Shown here: piece after piece, positions 1,858 through 61,986 of the stretch
How positions within the stretch are numbered: the first letter of the stretch is position 1
Layout of the letters: each line of letters opens with the position of its first letter
IMG/VR virus record: IMGVR_UViG_3300037321_000115
Length of the DNA: 64,000 nucleotides
Strand: one strand, 5' to 3'
From: a virus
Lineage: Duplodnaviria; Heunggongvirae; Uroviricota; Caudoviricetes
The notes under the pieces: generated by a model
Told to the model about the DNA's origin: nothing
What the model saw: only the letters and a program-made list of their open reading frames with translations
Database searches by the model: none
Program-made: the position numbers and the translations under genes

Positions 1858-3954
1858 TTAGGCTTCGCAAGCAGCACAGTCCATCGATTGTACACGCTTA
1901 CGTGTCAACGCTTGTGCAGCAGACATTGAGAAGCTGTAATACAGACTCTTTACACCCATCTCGTGTGCATACAGATACAGTGCGTTGATTTCCTTTACAG
2001 ACATGTCAGGATCTAGCATAAGATTCAAGCTCTGTCCTTGGTCGATGTATTGTTGTCTGATTGCAGCGTGATCAATTACTGCATATGCATTTATCTCCGA
2101 GAACGTCTTGAACACTTCCTTCTCTTCATCAGTCAAAAACGTAAGGTGTTGTACTGATCCGTCGTTTGTCTTAATCGACTCCCACACATCATACGTGTTT
2201 TTGTCTTTTTCACTAAGTAGTTTGTCAAGGTAGGGGTTTTTGATTGTTACTTTAATCTTAGCAAGATCTTTGACGTAACAGTTGGAGAATTCAGGTTCAA
2301 TGGACTGACTGACTTGTCCTAAAATAAACGAACTAGACCGCGTCGGCGCAATTGCCATGGTAGTTGCGTTACGCATTCCATAGCCTTCAAGCAGTGGAGG
2401 CTCGCCCAGCGACACAGCGAGCTCGCGTGAGGCTGCATGCGATCTTTCCTGAAGCGTCTTAGCAATCTCAAGATTCTTTTTGGAGGCTGCCTTCGATTCA
2501 AAAGGAATCATGTTTGATTGAAGATACGAGTGCCAACCAAGAATGCCTACGCCCAATGCACGGTGATTAATTGCAAAGTTTCGTGCACGTTTGAGATACT
2601 CTTGGCCCTCTGTCTTGATGATAAATTCTTCGCATACCGTATCAAGAAATTTAGTCATCACTTCAATTGCATCTGTTTGAGCGAGTTCGTCCCAAAAGAG
2701 TACGTTAATTGAGGAAAGCACACACGTAAACGTCTCATCGACAGAAGATGGTAGGGAAATTTCTGCACAGTTGTGTACTAATACATCATTAGCAAAAAAT
2801 GATTGCGTTTCTGGCACTGTGATGTCGTACACAGGGATTTCTTCTTCGTACGTAATTCTTTCTGTTTTGATTGTTTTGCTCGACGAACCATCAATCAGCA
2901 ATTGATCTTCTTCTGTAAGATCTTGAGCCTCGACCCAACCTCTATTTTGAGTGAATAGCTTGTGGTTGGGCGTACACTCAACAACTTTTCCTGTAACATC
3001 GTCTGTGATTCGAATCATATCTTTAGTGGACCCTGTTTGAGCAGCAGCAGTCACCACTTGAAAACCATGTTCTGTTTTAACCTTTGTATCAGATGGGATA
3101 CCGCCAATAGCCCACAACTTACAGAATGTTTCAATTTCAACGACATCAGGAAGCGTGTTGGAAGGAAGTTGTATTGTAATAACACTGTCCCCACGAAGGC
3201 ACATGTTGCTAGCATGGACACGCATATCCTTGTCTTTATAAACCTGTGGCTTGTTATTGTTTACATTATCGCCAAATAGGATGTATGGATATCCCATCTC
3301 TGATCTACGTTGAAGAACCTTAGCCCAAAGACGACGCTTCTCTGCATCACCTGCCTTGACCTGACGAATAAAATCGTCCGATACAACAATTCCTGTTGTC
3401 AGACCTTGAATCGGATTGCCTTCTGAACCGATATCAAGGAACTCGTCCGCATCTTTGTGATCGATGTCTTGATATGCTGTGAAGAACCCTCTGCGAACAG
3501 ACCCTTGCGATATTACAGACGACAGTGTATCATATAGCTGCATAAAGTGAACAGATCCTGAGGACTCGCCTGAATCCTTAATATGGGAACCACGTGGACG
3601 TACTGCACCGAAGTAACCAGAGCACCCGCCACCGTTTTTCATTAGCATGCCGTTTTCAGCAACACCGTACATAATCGATTCCATGTGATCATCAATGTAT
3701 GATCCAAAGCACGAAACAGGTAAACCACGCGCTTTGCCGTAGTTAGCCCACACAGGCGAAGCCAACGAATAATATCCACGACTCATATATTCGTAGAATT
3801 TATCTGCAAATCCTGGTTCGTTAAGGTATTTTTCTGCAGTGTTTGCAATGTCGCGAATGCGACTTTCAGGTGTTTCCGATTCGCTCAAATATCCTCGTGA
3901 CAAGAATTTGCGCGAGTCTTCGTTTAGCCAATAAAATGGTTCTCGTCTATCCAT
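1858..3954 (-). CDS. nrdA: class I ribonucleotide reductase alpha subunit containing a mini-intein
   Basis: SLASPVW, SCF, GGGCSG, RRG motifs; spliced N-M-C-A-E active site; MAIAPT and C-terminal CAACEA. Confidence 0.95.
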   Translation of the reverse strand: MDRREPFYWLNEDSRKFLSRGYLSESETPESRIRDIANTAEKYLNEPGFADKFYEYMSRGYYSLASPVWANYGKARGLPVSCFGSYIDDHMESIMYGVAENGMLMKNGGGCSGYFGAVRPRGSHIKDSGESSGSVHFMQLYDTLSSVISQGSVRRGFFTAYQDIDHKDADEFLDIGSEGNPIQGLTTGIVVSDDFIRQVKAGDAEKRRLWAKVLQRRSEMGYPYILFGDNVNNNKPQVYKDKDMRVHASNMCLRGDSVITIQLPSNTLPDVVEIETFCKLWAIGGIPSDTKVKTEHGFQVVTAAAQTGSTKDMIRITDDVTGKVVECTPNHKLFTQNRGWVEAQDLTEEDQLLIDGSSSKTIKTERITYEEEIPVYDITVPETQSFFANDVLVHNCAEISLPSSVDETFTCVLSSINVLFWDELAQTDAIEVMTKFLDTVCEEFIIKTEGQEYLKRARNFAINHRALGVGILGWHSYLQSNMIPFESKAASKKNLEIAKTLQERSHAASRELAVSLGEPPLLEGYGMRNATTMAIAPTRSSSFILGQVSQSIEPEFSNCYVKDLAKIKVTIKNPYLDKLLSEKDKNTYDVWESIKTNDGSVQHLTFLTDEEKEVFKTFSEINAYAVIDHAAIRQQYIDQGQSLNLMLDPDMSVKEINALYLYAHEMGVKSLYYSFSMSAAQALTRKRVQSMDCAACEA
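2770..3201 (-). other. contiguous mini-intein (144 aa) in NrdA
   Basis: Begins CLRGDS, has CTPNH block B and VYDITV block F, ends VHN followed by +1 Cys; no endonuclease domain. Confidence 0.92.
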
Positions 3955-6882: not shown

Positions 6883-8070
6883 TTAAACTAGTTTTGCACG
6901 TGTCAGCACTGTTTGCTTCGCACCGTTGTATACTTTATGTTCTTTGATTGAGGCGTCAAGTTTGACCACTGATCCCCCATCCGCTTCCATTTTGTTCCCC
7001 GTAACCCATGTGAATACATTGCCTTGAATGTCCTTCATTGTGTGAAGATAAGTTGGACCATAGGCTCCTGAACCGAGAAAGATGATTTTTTCCAAAACCA
7101 ATTCCATCCCTCTGATTCGCTCTTTAACAACGCCCACAAAGTCGCTTGTCACATCATGTGTCTTGTCTTTTGGTGCTAGGCGCCTTTGAGCAGCCAGAAC
7201 GCCACTTGAAACCAGCGCTACGTGACCGCGCTTTATAAAATCTTGCTTAAACAACACGCGAAGATTGTCCATGTAATCATTGCCAAATGAGTCTGTTGAC
7301 CGAAAAAGCTCAATGGCTTTGTTGGTCCATGTTGTATCCTCGTTAGTGGTCTCTACATCGAATCCTGGTACACCATCCATCACAAACAACACACTTTCAC
7401 CTGTAGCCACATCACCCGTCTCGGCCTGCTTGGCCTTTGAAACATATCCTACAGTGCGGATCAATCCTGCTGCGATCACCAGGACGCTACGAAGATCGAC
7501 ATAGCCAAAACTACCAAACAAATTAGAGAAATCTTCGTCTCTGATGTTTTGGATTTCCTCAAAGAACTGAGCACGTTCAACGATCGACTTGGGATCATCA
7601 ATTCCGAGAAAGTCACGCAGACATGTCCGACCAACAGCAATCTGCTGTGTCCCGTCTGTAAGAACATATACATCGTTACGACGACGATCTGTGTTGCAGT
7701 GGTCACAGTGACCGTTATGTGTGCGAAAGGACGTATCTAAGGAAACATCAACGCCTGGAACACAATGGACGAGATTCTCACCACCTTCAAGCAGCTCAAT
7801 CCGTGCAAGAAGATTATAGCCGCCTATTTGTGGGGCCTCACCTGAAACAGTAATCTCAACACATTCACATTCGCGCGGCCCGTTTTCTGTGTTAACGGTT
7901 TCTGTTGTCACGCTGCCGAACGAATATACAATATCCTCGTTCCCGTACTTCAAAGCTTTTTTAACCAGCTTCTGAAGACGCTTTTCAATTTGTACTTTGG
8001 AGAAAAGTGGAATCGTAAAAGTTGCAAGTTTCATCGGATCTACCTTTGTGTACGTCTCTAAAGAAAGCAT
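6883..8070 (-). CDS. conserved phage protein with CxxC/C metal motif and probable C-terminal OB-fold
   Basis: HCDHCNTDRRRN and VGRTCLRDFLG; C-terminal beta-rich segment IKEHKVYNGAKQTVLTR. Confidence 0.7.
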   Translation of the reverse strand: MLSLETYTKVDPMKLATFTIPLFSKVQIEKRLQKLVKKALKYGNEDIVYSFGSVTTETVNTENGPRECECVEITVSGEAPQIGGYNLLARIELLEGGENLVHCVPGVDVSLDTSFRTHNGHCDHCNTDRRRNDVYVLTDGTQQIAVGRTCLRDFLGIDDPKSIVERAQFFEEIQNIRDEDFSNLFGSFGYVDLRSVLVIAAGLIRTVGYVSKAKQAETGDVATGESVLFVMDGVPGFDVETTNEDTTWTNKAIELFRSTDSFGNDYMDNLRVLFKQDFIKRGHVALVSSGVLAAQRRLAPKDKTHDVTSDFVGVVKERIRGMELVLEKIIFLGSGAYGPTYLHTMKDIQGNVFTWVTGNKMEADGGSVVKLDASIKEHKVYNGAKQTVLTRAKLV

Positions 8071-14482: not shown

Positions 14483-15235
14483 TCAGTCCTTGATGCGCGT
14501 CGTTTTTGCAGCCTTGTGCCATTTCAAGGAATTTGCTTTGCTGCTATTTCTATGAACAGCGTCGCTAACAATATCCCCCATTGCTGTGTCAAGATTCCTT
14601 AGGAATTCAGAAGAAGATTTGTGATCGGCAGGATCTACACTACGCAGAAGCTTATGATGCATCATAAGATCCTCACGGTCTCTACCTTTAAAAGGTTGTG
14701 CTGCATTCCACAAAGCAGTGGCAGCTTTTCTGTATGGGCTATTTGCCTCGTTTGTAGATTCTTTGATCGGCTTGTTCTTAAAGGAATTCCAATCTGACAG
14801 GTCTGTTGATACAATGTTGTATAGGGGCACTGTATCTTTTGTTGACGTGTGAACCACGCCACGACCCTTCCTCGTCGCCTTTGCAAGGTTGTACATTCCG
14901 TTTTGCTTGTATATTACAGTTCCACCGAGCGCAATGTCATCTTCCTCGTACCCTTCGCCATACATGGTGGAGTACTCATATTCCATCTCGTCAGAGTCGT
15001 CACCCATGTCATAATCGCCCATATCAGCACTCATTGACGTGGAAACAGATGCGAGTTCGTCTGATGCCTTTACAATTGCGCTGATCTGCCACCGCATGAT
15101 TGTGGCACCGTTGTCGATCATTTCAAGTATGTTGCTTGCAGAGTTAATAGCAATCCGAAGTTCTTTTTGCGTCATGTCATCGCCAGGGTAACGATCGTGA
15201 CCCTCTGTAACGTTGAATTCCTTGAAACTTTTCAT
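14483..15235 (-). CDS. probable internal head protein
   Basis: N-terminus MKSFKEFNVTE, internal IKES/TNEA motifs, late promoter at 15267. Confidence 0.65.
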   Translation of the reverse strand: MKSFKEFNVTEGHDRYPGDDMTQKELRIAINSASNILEMIDNGATIMRWQISAIVKASDELASVSTSMSADMGDYDMGDDSDEMEYEYSTMYGEGYEEDDIALGGTVIYKQNGMYNLAKATRKGRGVVHTSTKDTVPLYNIVSTDLSDWNSFKNKPIKESTNEANSPYRKAATALWNAAQPFKGRDREDLMMHHKLLRSVDPADHKSSSEFLRNLDTAMGDIVSDAVHRNSSKANSLKWHKAAKTTRIKD

Positions 15236-23615: not shown

Positions 23616-25001
23616 TTAATCCTCTACCACATTAAGACTGTAACCTACATTTAGTCCCTGACTGACAGATAGTCGCGACACAACACCGTCGTTTGACATA
23701 GATGGAAATACGTGATCCTTACTGACAGTGATTGACTTGCCGCTGTTCATTTTAATCTTGACACAGTCCTTCATCTTAGGATGGTGGACCATCGTGACTA
23801 GCTTTGTACTGTCTTCGCTTTTAATTTTGTCGCCTGGTTTCAGGTCAGATATGCATCTCGACGTTCCGTCACTCATGGTAACTGTTTCTTTAACGTAGAT
23901 ACATTCAGACGTGTTTGTGAGGTCAACGTCGCTCGAATCGTATGCTCCGCGGTTGTACTGACTTGACGATACAATAGGACAATCAAACTCCATTGCTAAA
24001 CCACGTATTTCCTCAGCGATTGACTTGACCAGCGTGTATGAGTTTGCGGCTGCTGCACCCTTCACACGAGAAGATGCACAGATGTTGAGATAATCAATGA
24101 AGATAATATCAGGAACAAACCCCTTCTTTAGTTTCAGCTCATTGAGAAGATGTCTAAAGTGTCCTGCGTGAGCAGACCCTGTAGGGTATTCTTTGACTAC
24201 AAGTTTTCCGGGCGTTCTGCTTTTAACCTTGGCAATTCTTGTATTGAACATTTCTCTGGGCATTTCTCGTAGCTGATCAATTGTGACGTCTAATAGATTA
24301 GCATCAATACGTTCTGCAATTCTCTCCTCAGCCATCTCAGCTGTTATGTAGAGGACGTTCTTGGCATGCATAAGAGAAGCTGCAGCCATGTGACATTTCA
24401 TCAAACTTTTGCCACCACCTGTGGTCGCTAAAATCAACGTCAAGGATTTGCGGGGCAGTCCACCCTTAGTGATTTGGTTCAACAGATCAATGTCAAAAGG
24501 AATTCGCTCTTCTGTGCGATGATAGAAATCATAACGACTGTCTGCATCTTCAATATAATCATGCCCAATGTGACTATCAAAGTTGATTCCAAGCGAATCA
24601 GACAACAGCTTAGGAATAGCACCCTTGTCAAACTCTTTGTCTTGCCCATCAAGAATCAAAATTGCTTTTCTAATTGAATTGAACAGATCCTTGTCTTGGC
24701 AGAACTTCTCTGTCTCGCCTAAAAGCCAATCTTGATTAGTTGCTGCATCAATCTTCAACTCGTCGATGGCTGTATTAACAGCTTTAAACAAATCCTCGTT
24801 GAGATCTTTACGTGCCTCCAGCGTAATCTTGAGAGCCTCAATTGAAGGTGGTTCTTTGTATGTACTGACATATTCAGAGAAAGATGCAAATATCTTTTTG
24901 GTAGCAACATCATCAAAATACTCTTCTTTGATGTATGGGATGACTTTGCGACAAAACTCCCCATTGTAAAGTAGATTAGCAAGAATAGTTTGCTCTATCA
25001 T
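23616..25001 (-). CDS. gp41: replicative helicase N-terminal fragment fused to split-intein IntN
   Basis: Walker A ATTGGGKS, IFIDYLNIC, SQYNR, extein ends DLTNTSE; 95 aa IntN CIYVKE..VSKDHVFP..GLNVG then stop. Confidence 0.93.
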   Translation of the reverse strand: MIEQTILANLLYNGEFCRKVIPYIKEEYFDDVATKKIFASFSEYVSTYKEPPSIEALKITLEARKDLNEDLFKAVNTAIDELKIDAATNQDWLLGETEKFCQDKDLFNSIRKAILILDGQDKEFDKGAIPKLLSDSLGINFDSHIGHDYIEDADSRYDFYHRTEERIPFDIDLLNQITKGGLPRKSLTLILATTGGGKSLMKCHMAAASLMHAKNVLYITAEMAEERIAERIDANLLDVTIDQLREMPREMFNTRIAKVKSRTPGKLVVKEYPTGSAHAGHFRHLLNELKLKKGFVPDIIFIDYLNICASSRVKGAAAANSYTLVKSIAEEIRGLAMEFDCPIVSSSQYNRGAYDSSDVDLTNTSECIYVKETVTMSDGTSRCISDLKPGDKIKSEDSTKLVTMVHHPKMKDCVKIKMNSGKSITVSKDHVFPSMSNDGVVSRLSVSQGLNVGYSLNVVED

Positions 25002-25072: not shown

Positions 25073-25672
25073 TTATTCGTATGTGTCCATGTCCATTTCC
25101 ACATCTGCATCATCTTCTCCGTGGCTGTCGTCCGACTTCTTTTGAGTTGCAGACAGTTTGAACTTGCGCTCTACAAACTCTTTGAAATCCACGTTTTTAA
25201 CAAGTTTTTCAAAAAAAGCATTGTTAGTAACCACATCTGCCTGACGATAGTTCTTCTCGTCTACTTCGCCTGTCTCAGGATCAACAAGATTGTACCAACC
25301 AACCTTCGGTTTCGTGATGAAGCCAGATTCCATTGCAATGTCGAAGATTGCAGTCCACTTTTGTATACCATCCTCATACATTACAGTGAATGGTAGTTTA
25401 GATTTCTCTTTGACGTAACGTGACTTCTCAATGTTGATTGTGAACTTCCATCCTGCAAGCTCAGTTCCGTCTTTCTCTTGTGACTTGCTGATGATGAACA
25501 CAGTATTTGCTGAATACATGATTCCCGTCCCACCACTAACAATGGCCTTGGGATATAAGGAATTGTGTGCAATTACTCCGTTGTCAAGCTCAAAGCAATG
25601 GTCTTCCTCTACAGTTATGTCGTATATTGGAAACGGATCGACTTTTTTAATTCCAGTAAGAGTTCTCATCAT
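25073..25672 (-). CDS. uvsX: RecA-like recombinase C-terminal fragment fused to split-intein IntC
   Basis: 37 aa IntC MMRTLTGIKK..IYDITVEEDHCFELDNGVIAHN, then extein SLYPKAIVSGGTGIMYSANTVFII..KSRYVKEKSK. Confidence 0.93.
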   Translation of the reverse strand: MMRTLTGIKKVDPFPIYDITVEEDHCFELDNGVIAHNSLYPKAIVSGGTGIMYSANTVFIISKSQEKDGTELAGWKFTINIEKSRYVKEKSKLPFTVMYEDGIQKWTAIFDIAMESGFITKPKVGWYNLVDPETGEVDEKNYRQADVVTNNAFFEKLVKNVDFKEFVERKFKLSATQKKSDDSHGEDDADVEMDMDTYE

Positions 25673-25942: not shown

Positions 25943-26815
25943 TTACCTAAATTTGGTACCCATATTCATACTTCCAGCTTCGACCCAGTTTCCGAACACA
26001 TCAAGAAACTTGTGGTCGTTGGTACACCTGACAGTAGAGCCATCATCAAACTGCAATTCGAAAAATTCTTTGTCTTCCGAATCCAATCTTTCAGGTCCAA
26101 GCGTATCAAGCACTTTTTGCATACCGTTCTGAGTATAAACCATGTCACCAACATTTATGTCCTTAATGTTGATAGAACCTCTGTTGGTTTTCACGAGCGT
26201 ATCACCAGCTAAACATTGCTCCAGATATACGTGATTCACTGCAAGGCACGGAATTCCTTTAGTTGTCAGGTATGGCGTGATGATACGAAACAACGACTTC
26301 AAGCTCTTGGCACGTGACATGTCCGCGACAGACTTTTCGTTTTGTGCATCTTCTAGCTCTTTCTTAGATGCAAGGTTGCCGACCGAGTCAATCATGATAA
26401 ACACTTTGTCTTTTTTGCCAATCGCATCTAACTTTTGAACCATATCGAACTTGAGCTCCTCCACATCCTTGACGGGAATGTGAACAACGCGATCAATGTC
26501 GATGTCGATGCTCTCAATGTACTCTGGTGTAATACCAAACTCAGAGTCATATAGCAGCGCAATGCCCTCAGGGTACTTGTCCAAATATGCCTTCATGCAG
26601 TAGAGGCTCAGTAGAGTTTTGAAGCTCTTTGATACACCTGCAACAACAGTCAATCCTGGTAGAAGCCCACCATCAATAGATCCACTAAATGCAATGTTGA
26701 GAATTGGGAGGTCGGTAGGAATTGCTTCCTTTGCATTGAAAAAGGGCGATGAGGATAGAACAGCAGAAGATTTGGTACTCCCCGTGCTTAGCATCTTTTC
26801 AAGTAGTGTACTCAT
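25943..26815 (-). CDS. uvsX: RecA-like recombinase N-terminal fragment fused to split-intein IntN
   Basis: GVSKSFKT Walker A, YDSEFG, IDSVGNLASKKE, extein ends VNHVYLEQ; 90 aa IntN CLAGDT..CTNDHKF then stop. Confidence 0.93.
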   Translation of the reverse strand: MSTLLEKMLSTGSTKSSAVLSSSPFFNAKEAIPTDLPILNIAFSGSIDGGLLPGLTVVAGVSKSFKTLLSLYCMKAYLDKYPEGIALLYDSEFGITPEYIESIDIDIDRVVHIPVKDVEELKFDMVQKLDAIGKKDKVFIMIDSVGNLASKKELEDAQNEKSVADMSRAKSLKSLFRIITPYLTTKGIPCLAVNHVYLEQCLAGDTLVKTNRGSINIKDINVGDMVYTQNGMQKVLDTLGPERLDSEDKEFFELQFDDGSTVRCTNDHKFLDVFGNWVEAGSMNMGTKFR

Positions 26816-42328: not shown

Positions 42329-42841
42329 TCACGTGATCACAGTGCCAAACATATCATACGTCGTGATGTCGTCGAACCCCTCTGACAATTCTGGCTTCTG
42401 ATAGTTTTTCATCATGCTATTTAGAATATGGTCTGGGATAGTCTTACCTGGACGAGACCCTAGACGTCGGTGCCATTCAGCACGTTCATTTTCTGTTTCT
42501 GGAGGTGTAAAACTAACACACTCAACAGAATAACCCACGGATTTCATCTTGTTGATGATTGACTTCCGTTTCTTGATGCCTAGATTTGTCTGGTCCCAGA
42601 TAATCCACTGACGTTCATCAGCAACCGCTTCTTCCAACATCTGATTCATCGAGGCAGTTGCCCCCTTGATATTATTCTCGAACATTTCATTGTACGTTGA
42701 ATTGAAATGAGTAGCAGCATCTTCAATAAACTGATCAGTGCTATATACAAAGTACGAATCCGGATCAGCAGAAATGACATTTTTCACAAATGTTGATTTT
42801 CCACTGGCAGGAACACCCACCATGACATAACATTTTTTCAT
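42329..42841 (-). CDS. polynucleotide-kinase-like P-loop protein (AAA_33/PseT kinase domain)
   Basis: MVGVPASGKST, YSTD..IE, IIWDQTNL...RK, R..RPGK.IP. Confidence 0.8.
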   Translation of the reverse strand: MKKCYVMVGVPASGKSTFVKNVISADPDSYFVYSTDQFIEDAATHFNSTYNEMFENNIKGATASMNQMLEEAVADERQWIIWDQTNLGIKKRKSIINKMKSVGYSVECVSFTPPETENERAEWHRRLGSRPGKTIPDHILNSMMKNYQKPELSEGFDDITTYDMFGTVIT

Positions 42842-44473: not shown

Positions 44474-44595
44474 TGGTACCCATTACCGGACTCGAACCGG
44501 TACGCCACTAAGGACATGAGATTTTTAGCGATGGTCCCAAACAATTTTAAAACCATCGTAGAAGTCTCAGGCGTCTACCATTCCGCCAAATGGGC
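44474..44595 (-). tRNA. tRNA-Leu (probably TAA) interrupted by a 36 nt insertion in the anticodon loop
   Basis: Leu-type body (GCCCATT/AATGGGT, A73, long variable arm); removing 44526-44561 gives an 86 nt tRNA with loop CTTAAAA. Confidence 0.75.
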
Positions 44596-44632: not shown

Positions 44633-44711
44633 TGGTGCCCAAGGAGGGATTCGAACCCCCATCGATCCAATTACGGTACTACCGTTTAGAAGACGGTTCC
44701 GATACTTGGGC
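44633..44711 (-). tRNA. atypical tRNA-Arg(TCT)-like gene lacking a D arm
   Basis: GCCCAAG/CTTGGGC acceptor, A-CCA, ACCGT-CTTCTAA-ACGGT; about 7 nt in place of the D arm and about 20 nt variable region. Confidence 0.65.
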
Positions 44712-48390: not shown

Positions 48391-48513
48391 TGGCTCTTGT
48401 TGCAGGGCTCGAACCTGCGACAACCTGATTACTTTTGATACTTTCAGAATCGAACTGAACAATTTACCTTTAGTATCCACAGTCAGGCGCTCTACCAACT
48501 GAGCTAAACAAGA
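48391..48513 (-). tRNA. tRNA-Asn(GTT) interrupted by a 47 nt insertion within the anticodon
   Basis: Removing 48432-48478 gives an exact 76 nt cloverleaf with CCTGA-CTGTTAA-TCAGG, U1:A72, G73 and CCA. Confidence 0.8.
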
Positions 48514-48668: not shown

Positions 48669-48794
48669 TGGTGAACCATCTAGGATTCGAACCTAGGACA
48701 CGCGGATTACTGTTGACATAGAAGATTCGCACTTCACAGGACTTAAAATCCTCTGTCCAAAGTCCGCTGCTCTAACCAACTGAGCACTGGACTT
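48669..48794 (-). pseudogene. tRNA-Lys(TTT) interrupted by a 49 nt insertion, 5' acceptor strand damaged
   Basis: Removing 48710-48758 gives GCGGA-CTTTTAA-TCCGC; D and T arms and A-CCA intact; 5' strand does not pair. Confidence 0.7.
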
Positions 48795-48883
48795 AAACCC
48801 ATTAGACGAAAGGACCACGATTATAACTTCTTAATATAATGTTCTGTGTTAAACTTTTCGTGTCAATATATATTATTGAATTT

Positions 48884-48956
48884 TGGCTCCAATGGTAGGA
48901 CTCGAACCTACAGTGCTTTCGCGTCTGGTGAGTTTACCAGTTCTTCTACATTGGAA
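48884..48956 (-). pseudogene. degenerate tRNA
   Basis: Acceptor CCAAT(G)/CATTGG, T arm GTAGG-TTCGAGT-CCTAC and GCCA end; no recognisable anticodon arm. Confidence 0.5.
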
Positions 48957-51712: not shown

Positions 51713-52018
51713 TTGGAGAATGTGATGGAAATCTACGCGATTGGGACTGAGACGAAGCAAAAAATAGGATTCAGCAAAAATCCTAAGGCAAGGCTGAAGC
51801 AATTGCAAACAGGGAACTCTGAAACACTACACTTGCATCACACTATACAGGTGTCTGAGGACAATGTCCGCATATTAGAGAAATTCTTGCACAAGGACAT
51901 TGGCTACAAGCGGTTGAAAGGCGAATGGTTTGACATGACAAAGTTAGATGCTATCAGTTATCTGACATTTGCAGATATAACATGGGCTCACGATCCGATG
52001 CTCAAGTACAAACTTTAA
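51713..52018 (+). CDS. GIY-YIG-like (T5orf172/MUG113-type) nuclease-domain protein
   Basis: IYAIG..KIGFSKNP..RLKQLQTGN, LEKFLH, R..GEWF. Confidence 0.85.
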   Translation: MENVMEIYAIGTETKQKIGFSKNPKARLKQLQTGNSETLHLHHTIQVSEDNVRILEKFLHKDIGYKRLKGEWFDMTKLDAISYLTFADITWAHDPMLKYKL

Positions 52019-52905
52019 CTATACTTGTCGATGACCGCTTGAAGCTCGTTGACCATGCGATCTAAAGGGACTTCGCACTTGACCGCTGTGCTAAGAGAGC
52101 CATAATGTTGCTCGAGACAGCTCATCAACAATTCTTTGATTGCTTGCTCGTCTGGGCCCTGCTGAAGTGTCGACTTCTGATATAAGTCATCAAGGTGTCG
52201 TTCCTTCTGCGTTGCCCACTCTTTGATTCTTTCATAAGACCATTCGCCACGACGAACAGATTTAAGCACTTCTCGATTACGTTCAATGTCCAAATCGTGC
52301 TCGACAAGAATCTGTTCGCATTGCAGTCCGAGACGTATTGTATGTGTTGCAAATTTTGTACAAAAACCAAACTTGGCAATGTTTGCTGCTCTTTTCTCAT
52401 TAGCAGAGTTTGCCTTTGTGCCAATTTTGTGCAGTTGGCTGAACATATATCCTCTAAACTTCTGATAGCTTCCTTTATGCAAGAACGATTTTCTATTGTC
52501 ACGAACAAGCTGTGCGACAGTGGTACAGAACAGCACACACCGTTGAGGCGTGAACAGCGAATCGAGAATGTTCGGATTGTTGTCCATTGCAAGTGACATA
52601 TAGGACACAATAGAGTAGATCGCAAAATCGTATTCCTGTCGTGTTTCTTTGTCTGTTACATGATGTTGTTGCCACACATTGAACTTGTCTCTTTGTGTTC
52701 CAAACCCTGGGATAATGCCTGCGAGGTGAGGAAACACATCCTCTTTGGGAGGAATACAAAAACCGACAATATCCATGTCTGATTCGTCTGAGTTGATTCC
52801 ATATGATTGTGAGCCTGCAATGGTTTCATAGTGGATGTTTGGTGTCAACCATTTTGGAGGACTGATCAATCCTTTTTGCTTCATAAGCTGTGCACGGGAC
52901 GACAT
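52015..52905 (-). CDS. Pol-beta superfamily nucleotidyltransferase (RlaP/Nuc-transf-like)
   Basis: GSQSYG.N..ESDMD..G, NNPNILD.LF, K.A.H..RL..Q. Confidence 0.85.
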   Translation of the reverse strand: MSSRAQLMKQKGLISPPKWLTPNIHYETIAGSQSYGINSDESDMDIVGFCIPPKEDVFPHLAGIIPGFGTQRDKFNVWQQHHVTDKETRQEYDFAIYSIVSYMSLAMDNNPNILDSLFTPQRCVLFCTTVAQLVRDNRKSFLHKGSYQKFRGYMFSQLHKIGTKANSANEKRAANIAKFGFCTKFATHTIRLGLQCEQILVEHDLDIERNREVLKSVRRGEWSYERIKEWATQKERHLDDLYQKSTLQQGPDEQAIKELLMSCLEQHYGSLSTAVKCEVPLDRMVNELQAVIDKYS

Positions 52906-57667: not shown

Positions 57668-58111
57668 TCACCCATAGACGTATACCACAGGCAATGTTCG
57701 TGTCAGGGTGTTTTCTATAATTGCGGAGATTACGTCCCAATTTCCATTTGCTAATCCTGCACCAATCATCGGCAGCGCAATCTGTTTAATGTTGACGGCC
57801 GAGTCAATGTATCTGAAAGCTTCAGCAATGGCCCAATATGACACATACACTACATTTTTATTGTTGCCGTAGTTTTGCTGCGTGATGGCGTTGTAAATCA
57901 CTTTGTCGTCACGTTGGATAGAAGGGATGACCGTGCCCAGTTCAAGACCGACACGGTTATACTCATCTACGTATCTTTGATATGCTGGGGGATATTTTGA
58001 TCTGACCATCTTAGCAACGCCAGAGCCCATCACTCCGTGACTATTACAGCCGTGGACAATGTGGGCGATGTCTGTGGTTAACACATCGCCGCGACGATAC
58101 TCAATTTTCAT
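57668..58111 (-). CDS. macro-domain (ADP-ribose-binding/hydrolase) protein
   Basis: GDVL, IVHGCNSHGVMGSGVA, NAITQ..YG, IALPMIGAGLANGNW. Confidence 0.9.
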   Translation of the reverse strand: MKIEYRRGDVLTTDIAHIVHGCNSHGVMGSGVAKMVRSKYPPAYQRYVDEYNRVGLELGTVIPSIQRDDKVIYNAITQQNYGNNKNVVYVSYWAIAEAFRYIDSAVNIKQIALPMIGAGLANGNWDVISAIIENTLTRTLPVVYVYG

Positions 58112-58784: not shown

Positions 58785-58916
58785 GGTGGATTCCTTTCAT
58801 TGTTAAAACTTCGTATGTACAAGTGAAGTTACATTTTATATAAATAAGGTTATAGGCAATCGCGATACTACCAATATCCATTGCCACTAGTCTTATTCAA
58901 AGGTTTCAACCAGCAC

Positions 58917-60164
58917 ATGTCTATTTATAAAGCCTACAAATACAGGATCTATCCAACTTTTGATCAGAGGCGAACTCTTGATCGTAATTTTGGTGCAGTT
59001 AGATTCGTATGGAACCAGTTGGTTGCAAACTTCAATTCCTACGGTACGGATGATCATGTGAAAAATATGTCGGAAGCTCATGTCAAGTCAGAACACGTTT
59101 GGCTCAAGGAATGCATTTCCTTTTGCATTCAACAGAAAACGCGAGACTTTCACGAAACTACCAAACAGTTCTTCAACAAGAAACGCAAGACGAAGTCTGG
59201 TAGGCCAAACTTCAAGAAAAAGGGGGTCTCGAGGGACTCGATGAGAATCCCTGGTCAGGCACTGGCATATAACAAAGCGGTAGACTTCGAAGCAGGTACA
59301 ATCAAAATTACGAAAATGACGCCTATTAAAGTTGTCTATCATCGCGAGTTCAAGGGCGAACTAAGAAGTGTCACACTATCCAAGACCAAAACTAACGAAT
59401 ACTACGTATCGATCCTTGTAAAAGAAGAAATGCAAGAAAAACCTAAGACAGGCAAGGATATTGGCATTGATCTCGGTATCAATCACCTTGCAATCCTGTC
59501 TGACGGCACCAAATTTACTAACCTAAAATATTTTCGCGAAACTCAAGCGAAACTGAAGAAGATGCAACAACATCTTGCAAGAAAAACTAAAGGCAGCAAC
59601 AGATACAACCAGGCTCGGCTAAAAGTTGCCAAAATACACGAGAAAATAGCCAGACAACGAAACTGGTATTATCACCAAGTTAGCAACTATCTTGTTACCA
59701 ATTATGACAGCATCTTTGTCGAAGACCTTGCAGTCAAAAACATGGTTAAGAATAGGAAACTGAGCAAAGCAATCGCTGATGTCGCGTGGTCGACTTTAGT
59801 TGGAATGATGGCATACAAGGCGAACTGGTACGGTAAAGAAGTTTGCAAAGTCGGAAGATTCTTCGCCTCAAGCAAGACTTGCTCGTGTTGTGGTCACAAG
59901 CTAGACAAACTTGATCTTGGAACAAGAGATTGGACTTGTCCTAGTTGTCATGTTGTGCACGATAGAGACATAAATGCTGCCAAAAACATTTACAAAGAAG
60001 GCATGAAGAATTTTCATGGTCTACTGTCGGAGGATTTGCCCGACATCAACAATCGTGGAGAGGATATAAGACCAGAATGGTTCCTGCAAAGGAATCGTTT
60101 GGCAAACCTCAACGAAGCGACTAGCAAACCTGTAGAGTTCGTCGAACTTTATGGACATGCATAA
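58917..60164 (+). mobile_element. tnpB: IS200/IS605-family TnpB RNA-guided nuclease, no TnpA partner (IS1341-like)
   Basis: AYKYRIYPT, FGAVRFVWN, GIDLG (RuvC-I), VEDL (RuvC-II), SSKTCSCCG..CPSC..HDRDINAAKNI (zinc finger and RuvC-III). Confidence 0.93.
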
Positions 60165-61209: not shown

Positions 61210-61424
61210 TTGTAGTTGTCCTTGTTAATTTTTGACCACATAGAGAAGTAGTAGTTCGTTTCGGACATGTCATCTTTATAACTCCAAAACTTTTCTTTCT
61301 CTCCAATCGACATCCCATCAAACCACAACCAAAAAGATTGCTTGAACTGTTGATACTCGTCGTCGTTAGGGTGCATCTGCCCCAACCTTCTTTTCCACAA
61401 CTTTGTGCAGTCCAGGGTTGACAA
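61206..61424 (-). CDS. hypothetical protein
   Basis: FW.WFD......K.KFW.Y..DM.E..YYF. Confidence 0.55.
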   Translation of the reverse strand: MSTLDCTKLWKRRLGQMHPNDDEYQQFKQSFWLWFDGMSIGEKEKFWSYKDDMSETNYYFSMWSKINKDNYK

Positions 61425-61986
61425 CCAATGCTTTTGGCATCAGATCACGACGAATGAAGTTTCTCATATATTTCACATCTTGATTGGACACGTCTTCGAT
61501 CCATGAGACATCTTTACGTCTTGCCCAGTTGGCAAATTCTGCTTTTCTGTTCTGGCGGAACGGACGGATGACGTTTAGGTTTGCATATGGGATAATCTTA
61601 CCATTCCCGTGAATGGATGACCACAGCCACGTTTCAACACAATCGTCAAGATGGTGGCAGGTAATAACAGGGCTGTCAAATGAGTGGAACCACGCATACC
61701 GTTCATTCCTCCAGTACTCTTCCCACGATTCTGATTTCGATTTTGTGTTTTGGACGTTGCCAAATTCGACACGCGTATCATCAGAAAACTCTCTTTGTGT
61801 GAATTTTTCTGTGATGAAGTTTCTTGCATCTGTTGATGTCTCTGTGCCATGATCAAAAAACAACAAGTTCACTTTGTGGTTTTGCATCAGGAAGTCGACA
61901 ACAGCCATGGAGTCGATTCCACCTGAACAGGCAACGTTTACTTCACGGTCAATTTTCCCTTGAATTTTAATCAAGCTCCCGTCCAC
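61366..61986 (-). CDS. tilS: tRNA(Ile)-lysidine synthetase, catalytic PP-loop domain only
   Basis: ACSGGIDS, E..WRNERY, T.HHLDD..ET, IRPF, W.ED.SN....Y.RN.IR. Confidence 0.88.
   Translation of the reverse strand: MDGSLIKIQGKIDREVNVACSGGIDSMAVVDFLMQNHKVNLLFFDHGTETSTDARNFITEKFTQREFSDDTRVEFGNVQNTKSKSESWEEYWRNERYAWFHSFDSPVITCHHLDDCVETWLWSSIHGNGKIIPYANLNVIRPFRQNRKAEFANWARRKDVSWIEDVSNQDVKYMRNFIRRDLMPKALVVNPGLHKVVEKKVGADAP

Follow-up and report, generated by a model that had tools for sequence, protein, structure and literature searches.

A tRNA-shaped insert between anticodon positions 35 and 36 of a phage tRNA-Asn gene, with covarying homologues in other phages

Introduction

Self-splicing introns of group I contain a conserved catalytic core (P3–P8) and are at least about 200 nt long. 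They are found in the anticodon loops of bacterial and phage tRNAs; in cyanobacterial tRNA-Leu(UAA), for example, the site is 34/35. The insert in a phage tRNA-Asn gene that is the subject of this report also interrupts the anticodon loop of a bacterial-type tRNA. The protein-spliced introns of archaea and eukaryotes (EndA/TSEN, RtcB or Trl1) likewise are small, hold no ribozyme, and need an endonuclease and a ligase. They differ from the phage insert in having a BHB motif and a site at 37/38, whereas the Asn insert is located at 35/36 and its carrier phages are without EndA or RtcB.

Two further systems handle RNA in ways that bear comparison. The mascRNA of MALAT1 and the mitochondrial “tRNA punctuation” model both involve embedded tRNA-like folds that are cut out by RNase P and RNase Z. 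Excision by tRNA-end enzymes is also what we propose for the Asn insert, a likeness in the way of working; the flanks of the embedded folds stay unjoined, however, whereas those of the Asn insert are tRNA halves that would have to be ligated. In the PrrC/Pnkp/Rnl1 system of T4, a phage RNA ligase seals an anticodon-loop break in tRNA-Lys. The T4 system repairs a mature tRNA after host attack, as opposed to removing an insert, and Rnl1-type genes like that of T4 are present in one of the near-complete carrier genomes described below (G001) and in Agrobacterium phage Atu_ph07, with none found in the window, by which we mean the whole 64,000-nt stretch of viral DNA analyzed here.

The insert is nearest in kind to the “enigmatic” introns that Devoto et al. 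(2019) described in the tRNAs of Lak megaphages, some of which are tRNA-like (PMC6784885). The Lak introns are short, highly conserved inserts in the anticodon loop, one of them possibly encoding a tRNA (PMC6784885). The Lak Tyr intron (Table S6 of that work) ends at its 3′ side in a T arm with the loop TTCGAAT, an acceptor-like strand, and a 3-nt tail; the Lak borders were set at 37/38 by tRNAscan in eukaryotic mode, and the account includes no covariation analysis or mechanism (PMC6784885). The Lak introns are found in other phages, hosts, and tRNAs and are longer (93 nt for Tyr) than the Asn insert, and the likeness of the Tyr intron to the Asn insert lies in architecture alone, as compared by eye. 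A literature search found no later paper giving a mechanism for Lak-type introns.

As would be expected of an intron of this kind, removal of the Asn insert restores a canonical tRNA, and a tRNA-like acceptor stem and T arm lie within it. The kind has been reported descriptively before, and its mechanism is undescribed; an initial annotation of this DNA, which spoke of a new class of introns, overstated the case in view of the 2019 report (PMC6784885). New here are the Asn insert family and the constancy of its 35/36 site, together with the evidence from covariation and a carrier in culture.

Results and Discussion

Organization of the interrupted tRNA-Asn gene

The locus is a tRNA-Asn(GUU) gene on the minus strand of the window, divided into two exons by a 47-nt insert (Table 1). 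Read from 48513 to 48479, the 5′ exon runs from the acceptor strand through a standard D arm and the anticodon stem strand CCUGA to CUGU, and the 3′ exon follows with UAA, UCAGG, a 5-nt variable loop, the T arm, the acceptor strand, G73, and CCA. In intron mode, ARAGORN identifies this gene as tRNA-Asn(gtt) and places an intron of 47 nt at 35/36. The Rfam tRNA model (RF00005) scores it at 56.4 bits against a cut-off of 29 and takes the insert as a 50-nt anticodon-loop insertion. With the insert removed in silico, the 76-nt sequence is called tRNA-Asn(gtt) by ARAGORN without intron mode. The initial annotation had described a tRNA-Asn split in its anticodon by a 47-nt insert, whose excision yields a 76-nt tRNA-Asn; both points hold, the first with coordinates that are exact to the nucleotide. 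Applied to homologues as single sequences, ARAGORN proved unreliable, returning His, Tyr, Ile, or Asn(att) with varying borders, and the intron borders were fixed from family comparison and uninterrupted genes.

Table 1. Positions of the interrupted tRNA genes and of the parts of the Asn insert (window coordinates unless an accession is given)
Feature	Position	Strand	Basis or remark
Interrupted tRNA-Asn(GUU) gene, CCA encoded	48391..48513	-	ARAGORN intron mode, Rfam tRNA model
5′ exon, tRNA positions 1-35, ends CUGU	48479..48513	-	sequence
47-nt tRNA-shaped intron, between U35 and U36	48432..48478	-	homologues with covariance model R1
3′ exon, tRNA positions 36-76, starts UAA	48391..48431	-	sequence
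Insert: closing stem (acceptor-like), 5′ strand GAUACU	48472..48477	-	6/6 pairs change both sides, 100% paired
Insert: linker AAAGGUAAAUUG	48460..48471	-	AAAGGU invariant in alignment
Insert: T-arm mimic, 5-bp stem UUCAG/CUGAA, loop UUCGAUU	48443..48459	-	loop invariant, 3/5 stem pairs change both sides
Insert: closing stem, 3′ strand AGUAUC	48437..48442	-	directly after T stem, as in tRNA
Insert: 5-nt tail AAAAG	48432..48436	-	invariant in 4/4 homologues
Interrupted tRNA-Lys(UUU), 49-nt tRNA-shaped intron 48710-48758 at 35/36	48669..48794	-	partial Rfam hit
Interrupted tRNA-Leu(UAA), 36-nt plain hairpin 44526-44561 after U34	44474..44595	-	Rfam tRNA 42.5 bits
Atu_ph07 interrupted tRNA-Lys(UUU)	MF403008.1 c68156-68280		genome scan
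Atu_ph07 interrupted tRNA-Asn	MF403008.1 c323904-324023		genome scan
Atu_ph07 interrupted tRNA-Thr(UGU)	MF403008.1 c335105-335213		genome scan

The gene had also been taken for the sole Asn gene of the window. It is the sole intact one, there as in three near-complete carrier genomes (G001, G002, and G004); the window has in addition an Asn paralogue at 48884–48955(−), a homologue of positions 7026–7109 of a related contig (L002), from which a 12-nt deletion has taken out the anticodon loop and which is probably a pseudo-tRNA. Judged from the sequence, the insert must be removed if the gene is to yield the only tRNA-Asn(GUU) of the phage.

Architecture and fold of the insert

In its predicted form, the insert is the upper half of a tRNA, in which an acceptor-like stem stacks on a canonical T arm, with a tail added. 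The minimum free energy (MFE) fold is the very structure that had been described at the outset, namely, a closing stem GAUACU/AGUAUC, a GG-containing loop formed by the linker AAAGGUAAAUUG, and a T-arm mimic UUCAG-UUCGAUU-CUGAA, and its stems covary, as set out below. Folding of the anticodon arm together with the insert gives an outer part that consists of the 5-bp anticodon stem, a 3-nt UAA bulge, and the pairs C32:G and U33:A, and an inner part that consists of a 3 × 3 internal loop, the 6-bp stem, the 12-nt linker, and the 5-bp hairpin. The C32:G and U33:A pairs use the last two intron bases; they never vary and are uninformative for covariation. The first intron base, G (48478), is unpaired and faces an A, so that the insert has a purine opposite A in a position that resembles a 1·72 mismatch of a tRNA. 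As G18 and G19 do in a tRNA, the GG of the linker may contact the T loop, and we infer an elbow of this sort.

The z-score of the fold against shuffled sequences is only −2.1, and thermodynamics by itself is thus weak evidence for the structure. A search of Rfam with the insert alone returned no match at E values up to 10, the tRNA model included.

Homologous inserts and covariation

The initial annotation had named homologous inserts with compensatory changes as a finding on which its reading would depend, and three were found with pattern searches and a covariance model. A search with the exon pattern and a free gap identified interrupted genes in ten viral contigs, and a relaxed pattern added one further viral contig. 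Clear homologues of the Asn insert, all at the same site of tRNA-Asn, are present in L081, a 284.8-kb genome rated complete; in L088, which is the cultured Agrobacterium phage Atu_ph07 (MF403008.1, G002; 490,380 bp); and in L146, the copy of which is truncated by the contig end. With the window, the family comprises four phages.

All four inserts have the same linker start (AAAGGU), T loop, and tail (AAAAG). The closing stems, on the other hand, read GAUACU/AGUAUC, GAAGCU/AGCUUC, AGAGGC/GCCUCU, and GGCGCU/AGCGCC. Across the four sequences, 98.6% of alignment cells are paired, and 11 of the 18 pairs change on both sides (among them 6/6 in the closing stem and 3/5 in the T stem). The observed values were reached in 0/500 shuffles, and when the partner was moved by 1–3 columns, 25–43% of cells were paired. 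The alignment confirms, at the level of sequence comparison, that the predicted fold is not due to chance and that this tRNA-like structure has been conserved.

A covariance model built on the four members (R1) scores 85–90 bits on each of them, with one strong match per phage, and also cross-matches the T arms of genuine tRNAs. The exact pattern of the whole interrupted gene had no match in viral contigs. Patterns of the intron core gave 57 matches in viral contigs and 22 in metagenome contigs; on inspection, all but those in L081, L088, and L147 (the L081 contig) were due to chance or were ordinary tRNAs and were rejected. No match to the intron family was found in the prokaryote genomes searched, and cultured phages, when searched for near-identity to the 5-kb tRNA region, matched it in tRNA-Ala only. 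Loci around homologues of the bilin reductase of the window (80 in all) contain few tRNAs, and only three are close relatives, with differing tRNA clusters.

Selection on the exons and identity of the predicted spliced tRNA

The exons bear the marks of a working tRNA. In the three full-length genes, four of the seven acceptor-stem pairs change on both sides while the stem remains 100% paired, and U1:A72 and G73 are kept in 3/3. An acceptor stem that covaries and stays paired indicates that the exons have been under tRNA selection since insertion, and from the conservation and covariation of the exons it can be argued that the insert is removed. We consider its actual removal from tRNA-Asn quite probable on these comparative grounds.

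Uninterrupted genes fix both the 35/36 junction and the Asn identity. The sequence CUGU-UAA (Asn, GUU) is found in 94/99 uninterrupted viral tRNA genes that have the same D-stem end and anticodon stem. An uninterrupted gene in L187 equals the exons of L081 over positions 8–65 except for one base, and L001, a relative of the window, has an uninterrupted Asn gene with the same D and T arms.

These genes bear directly on the reading of the insert as a canonical archaeal/eukaryotic-type intron at 37/38, the product of which would be tRNA-His(GUG). A cut after CUGUGG does give the loop CUGUGGA, and ARAGORN calls the L081 homologue His. The Atu_ph07 homologue, however, begins CUGU-AAG, which by the same rule would be Tyr; the tRNA body has U1:A72 and G73 and is without G−1; and tRNA genes with the same anticodon arm are, as noted above, nearly all Asn. 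Moreover, the window, G001, G002, and G004 each have a separate tRNA-His(GUG) gene, which removes the His reading. The initial annotation had weighed the two cuts and preferred 35/36 with an Asn body, and the uninterrupted genes, G73, the lack of G−1, and the separate His genes all uphold that choice.

Nor does the fold supply the motif that a 37/38 intron of this type would have. A BHB intron was rejected after both orientations had been folded, as no two 3-nt bulges on opposite strands with a 4-bp helix between them are present. What the fold contains is a UAA bulge of 3 nt, then 2 bp of helix, then a 3 × 3 internal loop; a forced 4-bp BHB helix needs a G·A mismatch and breaks the continuity with the closing stem. 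The 37/38 reading is, in our judgment, extremely unlikely.

Interrupted tRNA genes in Atu_ph07 and elsewhere

Atu_ph07 was published with tRNAs for every amino acid but Asn and Thr (PMC6102473). Our scan of its genome located three unannotated tRNA genes, Asn, Lys(UUU), and Thr(UGU), all interrupted between 35 and 36, before UAA (Table 1). For all three, ARAGORN calls a canonical tRNA once the insert is removed in silico. With Asn and Thr found as interrupted genes, both of the published gaps are filled. The Thr insert is a plain hairpin without a T arm.

The interrupted tRNA-Lys(UUU) gene of the window has an intron homologous to that of the Atu_ph07 tRNA-Lys, but the gene itself is broken. 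The Rfam tRNA hit covers only model positions 10–63; a 15-nt patch (48786–48800) stands in place of the 5′ acceptor strand, leaving the stem unpaired; and ARAGORN rejects the copy after splicing in silico. A 99% identical contig (L329) contains the same Lys gene, at about 14505–14630, with an intact strand, GGACCAT. In-silico removal of the insert gives a canonical tRNA in every gene tested save this broken window copy.

The insert in the tRNA-Leu(UAA) gene of the window is of a different type, without a T arm, and the spliced form is called Leu(taa); an uninterrupted Leu(taa) gene with a similar body is found in L002. This insert lies at 34/35, the classical site of the cyanobacterial group I intron.

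Other tRNA-shaped inserts at CUGU|UAA, those of the L082 group and of L086, share with the Asn family the mismatch of the first base with A and the 6-bp stem. The L082-group insert has a D-arm-like hairpin and a tail of only 2 nt, and the L086 insert has the loop UGCAAAC and the tail AAGGA. The Rfam tRNA model aligns the L082 insert to model positions 2–69 (21.8 bits; E of 0.005 in a small search), which places the start of that intron at tRNA position 1 and its 3′ junction after 73.

The comparison of families also informs the question of whether the insert might be a new, very small RNA that splices or cleaves itself. One feature recalls group I introns: both the Asn and the Lys family have U as the last base of the 5′ exon and G as the last base of the intron. 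This terminal G is not kept, however, as the L082 family ends in U and the L086 family in A, and a 47-nt RNA made up mostly of two helices and a T loop has no room for a catalytic core. The insert had been judged far too short for a group I or group II intron, an assessment with which its length and the lack of any Rfam intron match agree. A group I intron was rejected as a candidate because of the length and because neither Intron_gpI nor any other Rfam model matched with an E value of 10 or below. The Rfam covariance models of known small self-cleaving ribozymes, including hammerhead, twister, pistol, and hatchet, likewise gave no match. We regard a self-splicing or self-cleaving RNA as very unlikely.

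Two other tRNA-like loci were observed in the course of these comparisons. A conserved tRNA-like gene at 44636–44711(−) of the window (Rfam tRNA, 41.9 bits) is without a D arm and has the loop CUUCUAA and a 21-nt variable region; its counterpart in L002 (13676–13738) lies directly after a tRNA-Lys 5′ half. Positions 182974–183095 of G004 (= L083, 9256–9377) encode a type II tRNA, ochre-suppressor-like with its anticodon UUA, in which 39 nt interrupt the anticodon stem on its 5′ strand and that stem strand is duplicated.

Candidate route of removal

If the gene were not spliced, it would be inactive or would serve to make another product, namely, a stand-alone mini-tRNA released by RNase P, tRNA halves, or an RNA that acts as a decoy for defence or processing proteins that bind tRNA. 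Decay of tRNA genes is frequent in the cluster (the Asn paralogue without an anticodon loop, the broken Lys, and the tRNA-like gene that has no D arm), searches of the lineage of the window turned up no ligase, and the T loop and GG could be conserved because the RNA, once released, has a function of its own. We nevertheless regard the absence of splicing as distinctly unlikely, given exon stems that covary and are fully paired in phages diverged since insertion, the restoration of a canonical tRNA each time that an insert is removed, the broken Lys copy excepted, and the position of the gene as the sole Asn tRNA of each near-complete genome, which in Atu_ph07 fills the published Asn gap.

We tentatively hold, with confidence just short of even, that the insert is a genuine intron whose removal depends on proteins: tRNA-end processing would release it, and an RNA ligase would seal the exons. 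In the route that we infer, each enzymatic step of which is put forward conditionally, RNase P would read the acceptor/T-arm stack and cut at its 5′ end, which is the U35|G junction. A second endonucleolytic cut, by an RNase Z- or RNase E-type enzyme or by a phage enzyme, would fall at the end of a 4-nt overhang, before U36. Cuts of the RNase P type and of the RNase Z or E type would leave a 3′-OH and a 5′-phosphate that an ATP-dependent ligase could seal directly, and an RNA ligase resembling T4 Rnl1 or Rnl2 would close the nick in the anticodon loop.

The 5′ junction is located where such a route would place it. In the Asn insert, the T loop and the 5′ junction are separated by 12 layers (five T-stem pairs, six closing-stem pairs, and the mismatch), which gives the junction the geometry of an RNase P site. 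This stack geometry of the predicted RNase P site fits the Asn, L082, and L086 families, and the Lys family has 11 layers. By analogy with the L082 family, for which the alignment to the tRNA model is available, the data fit an Asn intron that starts at the equivalent of tRNA position 1.

The 3′ junction is harder to accommodate. RNase Z would be expected to cut after position 73. Three families (Asn, Lys, and L086) instead have the junction after what corresponds to position 76; in the Asn insert, the stem is followed by A, A, and then AAG. To our knowledge, no known bacterial endonuclease would be expected to cut after position 76 on an AAG tail. In addition, one rule does not cover all inserts, given that two of them (Leu in the window and Thr in Atu_ph07) are plain hairpins.

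Candidate ligases are encoded by the near-complete carriers. ATP-dependent RNA ligases of PF09511 are present in G001 and G002, and those of PF09414 in G001, G002, and G004; the Rnl1-type protein of Atu_ph07 is encoded by an ORF that spans 201090–201674. RNA ligases are common in large phages anyway, so their presence in three carriers lends the route weak support. RtcB was absent from G001, G002, and G004, with controls detected in the expected reference genomes, and no EndA-type endonuclease (PF01974) was found in G001, G002, G004, G005, or G006, although it was found in four archaeal control genomes. RNA ligase, RtcB, and EndA were not found in the roughly 130 kb made up of the 64-kb window and fragments of its lineage. 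One contig of this lineage, G007, which contains L329, shares 14 kb with the window at 99% identity and adds about 66 kb outside it. Of the initial proposal that host tRNA nucleases excise the insert and a phage ligase joins the halves, the part concerning the 5′ junction fits, whereas the 3′ junction, after 76 and not 73, does not simply fit, and no RNA ligase was found in the window or in the further 66 kb of G007.

An unrecognised dedicated endonuclease, encoded by phage or host and reading the T-loop elbow or the junction sequences, could instead cut a real intron, leaving 2′,3′-cyclic phosphate and 5′-OH ends that would be healed by a polynucleotide kinase/phosphatase and then ligated. 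Three proteins of the window are relevant here: a stand-alone PNK-like P-loop kinase at 42329–42841(−) (AAA_33, 4.7e-18; PHROG polynucleotide kinase, 5e-15), an RlaP-type nucleotidyltransferase of an “RNA repair pathway” family at 52015–52905(−), and a Macro-domain phosphatase-like protein at 57668–58111(−). These three proteins fit a cyclic-phosphate/5′-OH route better and keep the dedicated nuclease alive as an explanation. A 3′ junction formed by an invariant AAAAG tail and then UAA, which RNase P and RNase Z leave unexplained, also argues for such an enzyme, as does the fact that inserts of differing shape in Asn, Lys, and Thr all occupy site 35/36, ahead of UAA. Against it, no candidate nuclease was identified, the three near-complete genomes have no EndA homologue, and the tRNA-like build and the 5′ junction at tRNA position 1 would be a coincidence. 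We consider a dedicated endonuclease unlikely, although with some probability.

Returning to release by tRNA-end processing, the general form of this proposal would be a third route of tRNA splicing in phages, neither self-splicing nor BHB/EndA, in which a miniature tRNA is cut out by the tRNA-end machinery of the cell itself (RNase P and a 3′ endonuclease) and the halves of ANN-decoding tRNAs (Asn, Lys, and Thr) are re-joined at 35/36 by an Rnl-type ligase. This is a plausible generalization, in which our confidence is somewhat below even. If the inserts are spliced, phages have a way of dealing with tRNA introns that has not been described in bacteria, and a tRNA-like fold can serve as a portable excision signal. 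The tRNA repertoires of phages would then be under-counted, as with the “missing” Asn and Thr of Atu_ph07, and the RNA ligases of large phages may have a housekeeping role besides repair. A family member in a cultured phage with a tractable host makes the splicing question testable at the bench.

Genomic context of the window

The window belongs to a T4-like phage, with genes for gp32, gp59, UvsX, a gp41-like helicase, topoisomerase II, RNR, and ThyA, and it also encodes a heme oxygenase and a bilin reductase. By topoisomerase II, the closest cultured relatives are KVP40-like Vibrio phages, at 47% identity. The tRNA array is flanked by candidate RNA-handling genes, among them a gene for a PP-loop (TilS-like) protein at 61366–61986(−) and those for the PNK-like kinase, the RlaP-type nucleotidyltransferase, and the Macro-domain protein.

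The genome is heavily invaded by selfish elements. A TnpB gene (IS605-type OrfB) at 58881–60164(+) lies on the strand opposite to all of its neighbours, and its absence from the 99% identical L329 marks the element as a recent insertion. Hint/intein domains are found in the RNR large subunit (1858–3954), in the gp41-like helicase (23616–25001), and in the UvsX/RecA gene, which is split into two ORFs (25943–26815 with 25073–25672). The 80.7-kb contig G007 ends within the D arm of the tRNA-Asn gene, an assembly break that possibly results from repeats or from variation in the presence or absence of the intron.
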